Shown here in pieces: positions 60,963-64,000 of a DNA stretch of 64,000 nt; the stretch's first letter is position 1; each line of letters opens with the position of its first letter. The translations under genes and the position numbers were made by a program. The notes beneath the pieces were generated by a model. The model did no database searches. It saw only the letters and a list, made by a program, of their open reading frames with translations, and was not told where the DNA came from. This stretch comes from a phage: assembly GCA_011939005.1 (NCBI GenBank), contig GCA_011939005.1_4858.1. The stretch is one strand, 5' to 3'.

Positions 60963-61681
60963 TATTCTCCTCGCAACTGCGGTGGAATGTATTCACCTGT
61001 GCACATTTCGCGGTGAGCTTCTAACATGCGTTCGAAGCCGTACGTACGCGCGACCAGGGCCAAATGATAGATGCGTGCCGTAGAATACGCTTCCTTCGCA
61101 GCATCAAAGTTAGCGTTATGCTCGTACGCTTCTTTGCCGCGGGTCCAATGGTGCGCTTCTGCGTGCCAGTTCGGTTCCAGGCCAAACGCATATGCAATAC
61201 GTTCTGCAGTCCGGTCAGAGTCCAATATAGAAAACTTGCGGTACTTGCCCGGCGGGATATCGCACTGCGCGAATGCGTTCATCAGAATTGGAGCATCGAA
61301 ATCGGGACCACGCATGGTGATAACCATTTTCACGTTGCCCAGATCATCCAACCATTTTTTGGCCGCCCACAGCGCTTCTGGCAGTGGAGTGGTCCCAGAA
61401 AACGCTTCAATACGTGCTTTCTCGCTCGGTGCGTATTCGGGGTCGCCTTTACCTTCCCAATAACCGACCGTTTGTGGATCGATGTAGAAGATTTCTTTTG
61501 CTTTTGCATCATTGGGGTCGATTTTGTGGTAACATGAACCGATCATTTTCATTGTCGGAACATCGAATGCCACGTTTGCCAACGTTAAGATGTAGGCATC
61601 TGGACGTAAAGCCAGGGTCTCTAAGTCCGTCCCAACAACAACGGTGGGCGTTAAAACAGGCAGAATTTTAGGATATGTCAT
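60962..61681 (-). CDS. DEDDh-family 3'-5' exonuclease
   Basis: Exo I GTDLET, Exo II PDFDAPIL, Exo III HNANFD in order. Confidence 0.6.
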   Translation of the reverse strand: MTYPKILPVLTPTVVVGTDLETLALRPDAYILTLANVAFDVPTMKMIGSCYHKIDPNDAKAKEIFYIDPQTVGYWEGKGDPEYAPSEKARIEAFSGTTPLPEALWAAKKWLDDLGNVKMVITMRGPDFDAPILMNAFAQCDIPPGKYRKFSILDSDRTAERIAYAFGLEPNWHAEAHHWTRGKEAYEHNANFDAAKEAYSTARIYHLALVARTYGFERMLEAHREMCTGEYIPPQLRGE

Positions 61682-61725
61682 TTCAACTCTCCACGAGATT
61701 ATATATCACACTATTGACTATTAAC

Positions 61726-61764
61726 GTAAAAAAGGAAATCCCCTCTTACCCGAAGGTAAGAGGG
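61726..61764 (-). terminator. Intrinsic terminator (hairpin 61741-61764, C(UUCG)G loop)
   Basis: 10-bp stem ccctcttacc/ggtaagaggg, loop cgaa on plus, A6 run 61728-61733. Confidence 0.7.
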
Positions 61765-61769
61765 AGTTT

Positions 61770-62249
61770 TCATTGCACAAGGCAACTACTTTTGTGCCGT
61801 TCGTAGGCACGATTAAAAGACTCTCTGTCTTCGCGATAGCCGCGAATGAGAGACTTAATCTGTCGTGACAAATCACGACTAATGTCTTGAGGGCTACGAG
61901 AACCAGGGTCGAGATATATCCCGGAGGGTATACCATGAAGAGTGGGGCGAATAAACTCTTCACAAAGCGGTGCGGTCATCGGGGTGTGCCACCCTTTAGC
62001 TTCTGCATAGTTGTTTACTGACTTAGCGTACAGATAAACGTAATAAGCATAAGCGTTCACATCCGCAACAAACATTTTCCCTGCCAGCTTTTTCGCCTCA
62101 GGACTGTTCCCACCGTTATATACTGGTGGGTGTTCTAAAGGACGAAAAGGCCAATCTCCGGTTGAGGAGTAATCTGGGTCTACGTGACGGATGACCCCAG
62201 GGCATCCTGTCAACAATAGCACCAGTATCGCCACCAAAAATAACTTCAT
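61770..62249 (-). CDS. Lipoprotein (o-spanin-like candidate)
   Basis: Signal peptide with lipobox MKLFLVAILVLLLTGC; directly downstream of a type-II membrane protein gene. Confidence 0.5.
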   Translation of the reverse strand: MKLFLVAILVLLLTGCPGVIRHVDPDYSSTGDWPFRPLEHPPVYNGGNSPEAKKLAGKMFVADVNAYAYYVYLYAKSVNNYAEAKGWHTPMTAPLCEEFIRPTLHGIPSGIYLDPGSRSPQDISRDLSRQIKSLIRGYREDRESFNRAYERHKSSCLVQ

Positions 62250-62258
62250 GTATGCTCC

Positions 62259-62768
62259 TCATGGATTATTAAGCGTCTTGATAATCTCCTGTCGGAAATC
62301 GTTTGCCGCCTGCGACCCCACTGGGCGAGAAGCCGCCTGGTGTTTCTTGGCAGGCGGGCTAGACGGATTTAACGGTGCCTGTGGTGTTACCGGCTTGAGT
62401 TCTTCAGGCGGAACCGCGGCCCCAGTGCCTGTCCCTGTTGGAGATTTGGTACCATCATATGGCGATCGAGAACCCAGGCATGTGAAGAGACGATCGTACA
62501 GCTTATTGTTCTCCACTTCGCCATGATCGGACTTCTCTTTTAGCTCCTTATAGGATATCTCCAGATACTGAGTACGCGATTGGACGCTAACCAGTGTGTG
62601 GTATTGAACAATATAGGCATATGAGACAAATGCAGAGAACGCGACCAGTGCCACTATCACTAGTGTCACTATCTTCCCGGCTCGTGTTACTTTCTCCCCC
62701 TCGCCCGGTTTAAATGCTTCCCACAGCATCTGTAAGAATGGAAGCAGTTTGAAAACTGATGCTATCAT
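62259..62768 (-). CDS. Membrane protein with single N-proximal TM helix and Pro-rich C-terminal region (i-spanin-like candidate); ATG at 62768
   Basis: TM segment IVTLVIVALVAFSAFVSYAYIV; SD gaggtg 4-5 nt before ATG 62768 (ORF track begins at GTG 62774). Confidence 0.45.
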   Translation of the reverse strand: MIASVFKLLPFLQMLWEAFKPGEGEKVTRAGKIVTLVIVALVAFSAFVSYAYIVQYHTLVSVQSRTQYLEISYKELKEKSDHGEVENNKLYDRLFTCLGSRSPYDGTKSPTGTGTGAAVPPEELKPVTPQAPLNPSSPPAKKHQAASRPVGSQAANDFRQEIIKTLNNP

Positions 62769-62792
62769 GCTCACCTCGGAGAGTTTTTAATT

Positions 62793-64000
62793 ATGTATGA
62801 TTTACAAGGCTTTATTCAAATAGCGGCTCTGATTGATAATGGCCCTGGCAACACCGCTCCGGTAGGTGAGTTGTCTGAGCTGTCATATTCGTTCGCTAAA
62901 AGCAAGCAGTATTTTACTAAAGAAAATCTGCAGGTGGAACTGGTTGCTTTTACTTCTAAACGTGACGAGTTGCCTATTAAGACCCCGGCCGTCTTTAGCG
63001 ACCACGTTCTTACTGTTTCCCAATGGATCTACCAACAGTCTATCCTGGGCAACTTAAGAAACGACGAAGTTGAATTCCAGCGTTTGCTGTTGGGGCAATT
63101 TAATAGTGTCATCAGCGGTGTTCAGTCTGGCGCGATGATTCAGACTAACAGTAACTGGTTCCCACGTTGGGTCAGTTGGAAACTTGAAACCACAGCAGAT
63201 AAAGTCGAAGACCCATCTGATGTGAATAACCAGATTATTCTCTGGTTTGCTGATGAAGATTTCAATCAGGACTATACCGGATTTGAAATTGAAGTCCAAA
63301 TGCCGATATTACCGGTTGATACTTTCTTGGCTGTGAAATCTGTAGTCGAAAAGGCAATGGAAGGGTTCAACCTTCCGGATCACCATAATAAGATTAACGA
63401 ATTAGCTGACGGTTATCCGTACACTAGCCTGATTACTAACATCTATACTTGGCACGACCAGGAAGACTTTGATTCCACCTTACCGATACCGATGTCGGTT
63501 ATCATCTACGGCCGCGCAGGTCGTAACCCGAGCAGGATTAAACAAGCGTTACGTGATTACATTTTGGCAAACTCCAGTTTTACTGTGGCGTTGGGTGTCA
63601 AGGTGTTCCCAGAAATCTTTACGACCACCAAGTTCACAATTGTTCCCGGTTGGTCAATTCGTGGGATTCCAAATGAGGAAGATGTTGCGGCATTATACTC
63701 GCCGATTCTCCCATATGATTTCTGGGTCAAAGCAATCTCCCGATTTGGGGAGTGGACTGTTCAAACCATTACGGAAAAAAATAGTGGAGCGATCTCGATT
63801 CCAACTACCGATGTAACGGATTTACCGTCCATCTATAAATCGTTGAACGCCGTGGTTATCGCTGGCCCTGAAAACGATTCACGCAAAACGACCCTGCATG
63901 ACACAATTCCTGACTACGCATTAATCGGCACTAATAATGCGGATATTGCGAGAATGTCGAAGAAAACCACCGAGTGGTTGGATCTGTTCTTCCAGGCGTT
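62793..64000 (+). CDS. Hypothetical protein, 3'-truncated at window end (at least 402 aa)
   Basis: Frame open from ATG 62793 to the end of the window (my own translation; absent from the ORF track because no stop is reached); SD ggagag. Confidence 0.6.
   Translation, partial: MYDLQGFIQIAALIDNGPGNTAPVGELSELSYSFAKSKQYFTKENLQVELVAFTSKRDELPIKTPAVFSDHVLTVSQWIYQQSILGNLRNDEVEFQRLLLGQFNSVISGVQSGAMIQTNSNWFPRWVSWKLETTADKVEDPSDVNNQIILWFADEDFNQDYTGFEIEVQMPILPVDTFLAVKSVVEKAMEGFNLPDHHNKINELADGYPYTSLITNIYTWHDQEDFDSTLPIPMSVIIYGRAGRNPSRIKQALRDYILANSSFTVALGVKVFPEIFTTTKFTIVPGWSIRGIPNEEDVAALYSPILPYDFWVKAISRFGEWTVQTITEKNSGAISIPTTDVTDLPSIYKSLNAVVIAGPENDSRKTTLHDTIPDYALIGTNNADIARMSKKTTEWLDLFFQA

Follow-up and report, generated by a model that had tools for sequence, protein, structure and literature searches.

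Two adjacent minus-strand genes near the end of a 64,000-nucleotide stretch of phage DNA (contig GCA_011939005.1_4858.1 of GenBank assembly GCA_011939005.1; the whole stretch is called the window) encode a predicted type II (N-in) inner-membrane protein of 169 amino acids (62259..62768) and a lipoprotein of 159 amino acids with predicted outer-membrane localisation (61770..62249), and the locus raises the question whether this pair is a two-component spanin that completes host lysis or an envelope module with another function. An earlier note on this DNA had proposed a lysis module of spanin type. One part of that proposal stood: the formal architecture was found, and no second pair of this shape was detected in Salmonella phage SPN3US, a close relative. 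Other results did not support it: neither protein belonged to a spanin sequence family, and the pair proved to be related to gp156.1/gp156 of phage phiKZ. Taking both sides together, we read the pair as an atypical two-component spanin-like envelope bridge, and put the chances of spanin function in SPN3US-type phages at about even.

The window region 61500–64000 was 99.6% identical to Escherichia phage vB_EcoM_EC001 and 97–99% identical to SPN3US and its relatives; the window phage is an SPN3US-like (Seoulvirus), nucleus-forming jumbo phage related to phiKZ. In the SPN3US RefSeq record, the membrane protein and the lipoprotein are named ACQ60_gp062 and ACQ60_gp061, respectively, and both are labelled 'hypothetical'. 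From the major head protein and the protease, which we take to carry the numbers gp75 and gp245, we infer that the original SPN3US gene number equals 266 minus the RefSeq number (reverse numbering). By this rule the pair would correspond to SPN3US gp204 (membrane protein) and gp205 (lipoprotein), and these names are used below. No relevant literature on SPN3US gp204/gp205 or PHIKZ156 was found.

The gp204 product was assigned as a type II membrane protein from sequence, hydrophobicity, charges and hydrophobic moment. Its open reading frame (ORF) runs from the ATG at 62768 to the TGA stop at 62259–62261. A single hydrophobic segment was found at about residues 32–54, and the basic residues K7, K20, K26, R29 and K32 on the N side of this transmembrane domain (TMD) indicate N-in topology. 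The TMD is preceded by a conserved hydrophobic/amphipathic N-terminal segment (residues 3–20) and followed by about 40 residues of helical/coiled-coil character (about 57–98) with a single cysteine (C97), by a Pro-rich linker (residues 100–152, 11 Pro in 53 residues) and, in the only about 20 residues that remain, by a conserved amphipathic C-terminal peptide, ANDFRQEIIKTLNNP (hydrophobic moment 0.44). The N-proximal transmembrane helix and Pro-rich periplasmic part described in the earlier note were thus both recovered. In the alignment of relatives, conservation was highest at both ends, namely in the N-terminus with the TMD region and in the last about 20 residues, and was seen also around the cysteine; the linker was variable, with indels and partial deletions in close relatives; conserved ends with a variable linker form the pattern expected of a tether with a terminal binding motif. 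The protein corresponds to phrog_8719 (unknown function) and was matched in 73 phage records.

Because of this linker the earlier note had also seen a likeness to TonB, and a TonB/TolA-like energy transducer with a Pro-rich spacer was considered, an N-terminal TMD followed by such a periplasmic spacer being present. However, neither a TonB_C nor a TolA domain was found in Pfam and NCBIfam scans, and the linker is followed by only about 20 residues. The linker also varies in length among close relatives, and no ExbB/ExbD-like partner genes were located nearby. The resemblance was not borne out and was rejected; the probability of an energy transducer is close to negligible.

Alternative in-frame starts of gp204 exist at a GTG (62774) and at an internal ATG that is used in the SPN3US RefSeq record (156 amino acids, no Shine–Dalgarno (SD) sequence). 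ATG 62768 was preferred because a GAGGT SD, conserved in relatives, lies 4 nt upstream (62773–62777) and because the first 13 residues are conserved. Starts of this gene are inconsistently annotated (window 62730–62768; L001 12756–13265; L005 3531–3950); the GenBank start in phage pVa-21 gives a product of 99 amino acids, and the RefSeq start in PhiEaH1 differs too. SD-backed starts restored the conserved N-terminal amphipathic motif.

The gp205 ORF runs from the ATG at 62249, with AGGAG 5 nt upstream, to the stop at 61770, and was the sole ORF of the window with a credible lipoprotein signal plus SD. Its product begins with MKLFLVAILVLLLTG, followed by C, and bears the lipobox LLTG/C16, as stated in the earlier note. 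The +2 residue is Pro, not Asp; a lipobox was present in nearly all relatives, in its strict form in 34 of 41 related lipoproteins, and Asp at +2 was present in none of the 41. Two cysteines, C96 and C156, were invariant in the 41 sequences, most of which terminate in Cys-x-Tyr. A profile search with the lipoprotein returned 38 relatives among 1.84 billion representative proteins, and a word-indexed protein search returned close relatives only. The protein corresponds to phrog_8165 (unknown function).

With the 41-sequence alignment, an AlphaFold2 model of the lipoprotein was obtained at a predicted local distance difference test score (pLDDT) of 89.6; an earlier run with 7 sequences had been poor (pLDDT 58.7). 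In the model, the lipid anchor leads into a flexible tether (residues 17–30), which is followed by a conserved stretch in extended form and by a hairpin of two long helices (50–84 and 120–154) with an ordered connecting loop. C96, in the loop, and C156, at the C-terminus, are placed in the model such that they would fit a stapling disulfide. Comparison of the fold with PDB and BFVD gave no informative neighbour except family members, and sequence searches of PDB gave no match.

A phage-encoded outer-membrane lipoprotein may also belong to a superinfection-exclusion or receptor-masking system like T5 Llp or Cor, protecting the infected cell or the released virions, and one family member weakly matched the Cor PHROG (E 0.053). 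This match was single and marginal, however, and Llp/Cor-type lipoproteins are typically host- and receptor-specific accessory genes, whereas the gp205 domain occupies a fixed slot of the core genome and is shared by phages whose hosts (Pseudomonas, Ralstonia, Vibrio, enterobacteria) have unrelated receptors. An exclusion system is very unlikely on this evidence.

The pair was compared with the spanin criteria of Summer 2007 and Kongari 2018 for the two-component functional class. The gp204 protein shows the type II orientation and single N-terminal TMD of an inner-membrane spanin (i-spanin), with a cytoplasmic N-terminus of about 30 residues that is unusually long, and gp205 shows, by sequence prediction, the lipobox without Asp at +2 of an outer-membrane spanin (o-spanin). 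The lipoprotein gene lies immediately downstream on the same strand, separated by a 9-bp gap, with its own SD and a shared terminator; the junction (62250..62261, minus strand) consists of the TGA stop of gp204 and the AGGAG before the lipoprotein ATG (CGCTTAATAATCCATGAGGAGCATAC followed by ATG), and matches the 'separated' spanin-type architecture. As to the periplasmic helix of an i-spanin, only about residues 57–98 of gp204 look helical before the linker begins; for its homologue in Cronobacter phage CR5, 30% helix and one coiled coil were given in the published spanin census (Kongari et al. 2018, PMC6139136).

The surroundings were searched for endolysin and holin genes, as the earlier note had suggested, and an SLT enzyme and a protein with two TMDs were indeed found beyond the window end; they are not adjacent to the pair, but 4–5 kb off, across two structural genes on the opposite strand. 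The SLT transglycosylase (in SPN3US, about 4.7 kb away) is homologous to gp144, the phiKZ endolysin, in its catalytic domain (E 6e-13), bears an N-terminal signal/signal-anchor-release (SAR)-like sequence, and is followed by a cytoplasmic protein of 197 amino acids and by the protein with two hydrophobic segments (86 amino acids). In SPN3US (L001 16555–18185), the SLT enzyme and the 86-residue protein could represent an arrangement of secreted endolysin and pinholin. Both the GH108 endolysin of SPN3US and its gp142-like holin are located far from the pair.

A whole-genome scan of SPN3US gave three credible lipoproteins, of which only gp205 has an adjacent type II membrane partner. The other two (NC_027402 137623–138114 and 165783–167095; RefSeq gp107 and gp086) are without a spanin-type membrane partner, and gp086 clusters with two more signal-peptide proteins (gp085, gp084). 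A C-terminal TMD, as in a unimolecular spanin, was absent from all three lipoproteins, and a unimolecular spanin was rejected on this ground. In phiKZ, the gene order is gp139, gp140, gp141 (i-spanin), gp141.1 (o-spanin), gp142 (holin), gp143 and gp144. In SPN3US, the homologues of gp139 and gp140 directly precede a holin-like protein of 190 amino acids with a cytoplasmic domain of about 100 residues and two TMDs, a layout like that of phiKZ gp142, which is followed by a cytoplasmic protein of 212 amino acids (NC_027402 83438–86286; L012 34438–37286); the phiKZ spanin position is thus empty in SPN3US. No match was obtained in tblastn searches of phiKZ gp141, gp142 and gp143 against SPN3US, and SPN3US gp067 showed no similarity to the phiKZ lysis regulator gp143.

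Another idea is that gp204 itself acts as a holin or in the timing of lysis, its gross topology being that of class III holins, with gp205 as its periplasmic regulator. The topology (conserved cytoplasmic N-terminal helix, one TMD, periplasmic domain) is compatible with this, conservation reaches further for the membrane protein than for the lipoprotein, a holin was not found in several chimalliviruses, e.g. Moabite, and lysis inhibition has been proposed in phiKZ by Manohar et al. (PMC12894885). On the other side, phiKZ has a proven holin in gp142, SPN3US has both the syntenic gp142-like protein and the two-TMD protein beside the SLT enzyme, and no sequence relation of gp204 to any holin family was found in Pfam, NCBIfam or PHROGs. 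To our knowledge, there is no holin with an outer-membrane lipoprotein partner. We regard a holin-like role as unlikely.

Most phages of Gram-negative hosts carry spanins. Spanin function of the window pair is favoured because the SPN3US and CR5 lineages have neither gp141/141.1-type genes nor another candidate, and the formal spanin architecture, the own transcription unit and the nearby SLT and two-TMD genes make it plausible. The design of the pair, in which the inner-membrane partner extends a long arm that is conserved at its tip and the folded partner is anchored in the outer membrane, suits a complex that spans the periplasm. In such a complex, the amphipathic C-terminal peptide of gp204, carried on the variable Pro-rich arm, would bind the disulfide-stapled helical hairpin of gp205, and the bound complex would pass through the peptidoglycan mesh and link the inner to the outer membrane. 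Phages of SPN3US type would use this bridge as their two-component spanin: after removal of the peptidoglycan by holin and endolysin, the bridge would disrupt or fuse the outer membrane and thereby complete lysis. Partner binding, outer-membrane localisation and lytic activity are what we infer for the pair.

An assignment of the same kind was found in the spanin census of Kongari et al. 2018 (BMC Bioinformatics 19:326, PMC6139136), in which CR5_183/CR5_184 are listed as separated i-/o-spanin 'best candidates', tentatively and as 'Singleton' families. At about 33% and 30% identity, these proteins are true homologues of those in the window, and the idea of the earlier note therefore coincides with a published, tentative assignment of homologues. 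Both loci share the gene order, a gap of about 10 bp, the GAGGT ribosome-binding site and an endolysin a few genes away, and their proteins share the KLLP.L..L.E.FK N-terminus, the Pro-rich linker and the two conserved cysteines of the lipoprotein. The CR5 assignment was made by bioinformatics only, and SPN3US-type phages were absent from that census.

Several results weigh against spanin function, and the first of them concern sequence families and anatomy. The CR5 curators themselves recorded doubts ('Too long N-terminus?', 'very long individually', 'Too long?'; PMC6139136). Scans of both window proteins against Pfam and NCBIfam gave no spanin match. Rz-like PHROGs were touched by only 4 of the 41 lipoproteins, at E about 0.002, and no significant match extended over the mature protein. 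With hhalign, the window lipoprotein aligned to the gp141.1 family in the signal peptide only and the membrane protein did not match gp141 significantly, and profile comparison with T4/KVP40-type o-spanins gave no match. The membrane protein is atypical in its conserved cytoplasmic N-terminus and in that two coiled coils are replaced by one helical stretch of only about 40 periplasmic residues and the Pro-rich linker behind it. As the earlier note had remarked, the lipoprotein is longer than a typical Rz1; with 143 mature residues it is large and folded rather than short and disordered.

Further objections come from the place of the pair in other chimalliviruses, which opens a different explanation: the pair may be a chimallivirus-wide envelope-bridging module whose function is other than outer-membrane disruption, such as tethering or stabilisation in the long infection cycle or sensing across the periplasm. 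SPN3US-type phages would then have no conventional spanins or would lyse by an unrecognised route. We hold this to be a serious alternative, though less probable than spanin function. The synteny anchor is the divergent virion structural protein gene upstream of the pair (62793..64000, plus strand, running off the window end; SPN3US gp203), which lies outside the module itself and whose product is a homologue of phiKZ gp157 (phrog_3293 match, E 3e-159; 288 phage records, phiKZ gp157 among them). Related loci were found with a three-sequence alignment of gp157 homologues, an eight-genome alignment being too divergent. The order RNase H gene, pair, divergent gp157 homologue was common to the window, SPN3US, phiKZ, pVa-21 and Ralstonia phage FLC4-11C, and the same slot between the RNase H gene and the divergent gp157 homologue was found in PhiEaH1, Moabite, OBP, Aphrodite1, PCH45 and 20 IMG/VR loci. 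The slot is thus conserved in phages of Pseudomonas, Ralstonia, Vibrio, Erwinia, Serratia and Salmonella as well as in metagenomic contigs, which speaks for a family-wide module. The PHROGs of the slot pairs were 14813/37076 and 15897/8165. A search of IMG/VR with the phiKZ endolysin returned near-identical contigs only.

In phiKZ, the slot contains gp156.1 (PHIKZ_p47), a protein of 96 amino acids in which an N-terminal helix (LWPFLK..IFG) precedes the single TMD and a short helix lies in the periplasm, and gp156 (PHIKZ156), a lipoprotein with the lipobox LISG/C, a tether rich in Ser/Thr and, C-terminally, a domain that contains two cysteines. Direct BLASTP of the window proteins against gp156.1 and gp156 gave no match, and the homology of the lipoproteins was seen with profiles only. 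With hhalign, the window lipoprotein matched gp156 over the C-terminal 66 columns (93.3% probability, E 2.7e-7); an iterative hidden Markov model started from it recruited every gp156-type protein and no other of the 2321 ORFs searched, and phiKZ gp156 matched phrog_8165 at E 1.8e-6. By these profile comparisons, the window lipoprotein is homologous to phiKZ gp156. The similarity of the SPN3US-type membrane protein to gp156.1 was only marginal by sequence, which counts against a single family-wide module; the two share position, topology, the N-terminal motif and an amphipathic/basic C-terminal helix. This cytoplasmic motif (LWPFLK..IFG in phiKZ, KLLPFLQMLWEAFKPG in the other form) was the most conserved part across clades, and it is not needed by a spanin. 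The periplasmic part of gp156.1 is about 38 residues long, and the long tether sits in the lipoprotein of phiKZ, whereas it sits in the membrane protein of the window pair.

The phiKZ pair coexists with gp141 (i-spanin) and gp141.1 (o-spanin), which were proven experimentally (Manohar et al. 2026, PMC12894885), whereas SPN3US has no gp141/141.1 at the syntenic position. The five-gene phiKZ cassette gp141–gp144 suffices for lysis in E. coli and Pseudomonas (PMC12894885) and is sufficient without gp156/156.1. The gp141/141.1 family comprised 69 Pseudomonas phage records, and the count for the gp156.1 family was identical. Ralstonia phage FLC4-11C carries both pairs, namely the long slot membrane protein with its lipoprotein (gp59/gp58) and an unannotated cassette of phiKZ type (LC819006 90926–92633) with a RuvC-like protein (gp96), a type II membrane protein that has a Cys pair in its C-terminal part (gp95), a lipoprotein (gp94, LSGC) and a protein with one TMD whose N-domain is cytoplasmic (gp93). 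The hhalign comparison of gp95 and gp94 with the gp141 and gp141.1 families, respectively, gave 41% probability and E 2.8e-4 each. The slot pair thus persists where spanin function is already provided, and the idea that the slot lipoprotein occurs only where no other spanin exists was weakened by FLC4-11C. Since the pair is ancient and survives beside working spanins, its presence in SPN3US by itself does not imply spanin function.

The slot held the membrane protein only in PhiEaH1, Moabite, PCH45, OBP, Aphrodite1 and one metagenomic group. That some clades keep this protein without the lipoprotein implies a role of its own. Several clades without the slot lipoprotein have canonical spanins elsewhere: an embedded pair in PCH45, the census entries of OBP, EL and Ea35-70, and a pair in Moabite. 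This distribution counts for the spanin reading of the window pair, and persistence of the membrane protein alone in clades with other spanins favours an envelope module. The embedded pair of Serratia phage PCH45 (L045 15186–15722 and 15215–15535) consists of a type II coiled-coil protein and, in the +1 frame, an unannotated Pro-rich lipoprotein ORF with the lipobox LVGC; it is a classical Rz/Rz1-type spanin pair, listed in GenBank only as 'hypothetical protein'.

Transposon sequencing (Tn-seq) of phiKZ (Chan et al. 2025, Table S2) recorded no insertions after trimming in orf156, orf156.1 and orf141/141.1. As neither the slot genes nor gp141/141.1 tolerate insertions, simple redundancy of the two pairs is argued against, and the intolerance of the slot genes speaks for the envelope module; the signal may nevertheless be polar, since orf157 is without insertions and yet deletable. 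In Tables S2/S3, the block from orf153 to orf157 was insertion-free after trimming, and the raw table gives 4631 reads from 6 insertions for orf156.1, which presumably fall into the last 10% of the ORF, the part that was masked.

Tentatively, then, the SPN3US pair could be the clade member of an unrecognised family-wide module of gp156.1/gp156 type that bridges both membranes and has an important function distinct from that of canonical spanins. If so, SPN3US-type phages might lyse without classical spanins, or might have recruited the module for the spanin step after loss of gp141/141.1; we see this reading as a minority possibility. Against an envelope module of this kind stands the finding that the SPN3US and CR5 lineages have no other spanin candidate, and no positive evidence points to any specific alternative role. 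Spanin function of gp204/gp205 in SPN3US-type phages keeps its even standing with these points included.

The two genes were kept adjacent in about 70 phage records, from Seoulvirus, many Erwinia jumbo phages and Cronobacter phage CR5. In several SPFM-series records (LR535901–LR535917), both genes matched only as 2–4 broken pieces, which suggests frameshift-type sequencing errors in the deposits rather than true gene decay. Near-identical copies of the membrane protein (P0011, P0014, P0015) were found under Salmonella enterica assemblies on contigs of about 240 kb; whole SPN3US-like genomes are therefore contained in bacterial isolate assemblies, by carrier state or contamination.

Upstream of the pair, the divergent intergenic region (62769..62792; GCTCACCTCGGAGAGTTTTTAATT) is exactly the 24 bp between ATG 62768 and ATG 62793 that the earlier note had counted. 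It holds two SDs back to back, i.e. the GAGGT complement of the membrane-protein gene and GGAGAG (62778–62783) of the plus-strand structural gene. For the relatives L017, L018 and L019 the divergent spacing was 24, 24 and 20 bp, respectively; more distant relatives had 50–180 bp. Because 24 bp leave no room for conventional promoters, it is reasonable to place the transcription starts inside the adjacent coding sequences or further upstream. In phiKZ, the phage RNA polymerase recognises a late promoter that consists in essence of TATG where transcription starts (Yakunina et al. 2015, PMC4666361), and compact junctions are therefore unsurprising in phiKZ-type phages. A scan for sigma-70-type promoters was not above chance (6 found, 3.6 ± 2.1 expected) and is probably irrelevant, as the phage has its own RNA polymerases. 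One sigma-70-like −35/−10 pair, TTGAAT-18-CATAAT, lies on the minus strand at 62819–62790, within the chance expectation, and its −10 hexamer contains the reverse complement of the ATG of the plus-strand gene. The motif ATAYATAAT occurred in 3 window copies (0.6 expected), at 62790–62819, upstream of the exonuclease gene and at 1044–1052, which are too few to call a motif.

Downstream of the pair, a strong intrinsic-terminator-like hairpin (61740..61765, minus strand; 11-bp stem with 6 GC pairs, TTCG loop, T-rich tail) lies directly 3' of the lipoprotein stop and before the exonuclease gene (start 61681); a hairpin is predicted there on the plus strand also. Its position suggests that the two genes are a bicistronic unit of their own, set apart from the exonuclease and RNase H genes that follow. 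Past the hairpin, the minus strand reads GATATATAATC about 17 nt before the exonuclease ATG (61681).

As far as we found, three results are not described in the searchable literature: the family-wide conservation of the module, the homology of the pair to gp156.1/gp156 together with the coexistence of these with proven spanins, and the empty spanin position of SPN3US. Among the nucleus-forming jumbo phages, phiKZ is the only one whose lysis has been dissected; the enterobacterial branch has its genetic model in SPN3US. If gp204/gp205 are spanins, their atypical design would test models in which spanins act by coiled-coil collapse; if they are not, a conserved module of membrane protein plus lipoprotein, intolerant of insertions in phiKZ, has been overlooked beside a proven lysis cassette. 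For the therapeutic use of SPN3US-like phages the practical consequence would be modest.

Compared with known spanins, the window pair resembles lambda Rz/Rz1 and T4 PseT.3/PseT.2 in combining a type II inner-membrane protein with an outer-membrane lipoprotein, and T4 PseT.3/PseT.2 also in the 'separated' arrangement of the genes. The C-termini of the lambda and T4 spanin partners are thought to interact. Rz contains two long coiled coils and Rz1 is a short Pro-rich peptide, whereas in the window pair it is the membrane protein that bears the Pro-rich part, and the lipoprotein folds into a helical hairpin by the model. The spanins of phiKZ, from the same virus family, come close in build, with a type II protein of about 168 amino acids and a long lipoprotein of 120 amino acids with two cysteines; they differ in that no homology to the window pair extends past the signal peptide, and in that the phiKZ genes overlap and lie in a holin-endolysin cassette. 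As a putative spanin, the window pair is a further member of the already catalogued CR5 family, with an atypical anatomy.

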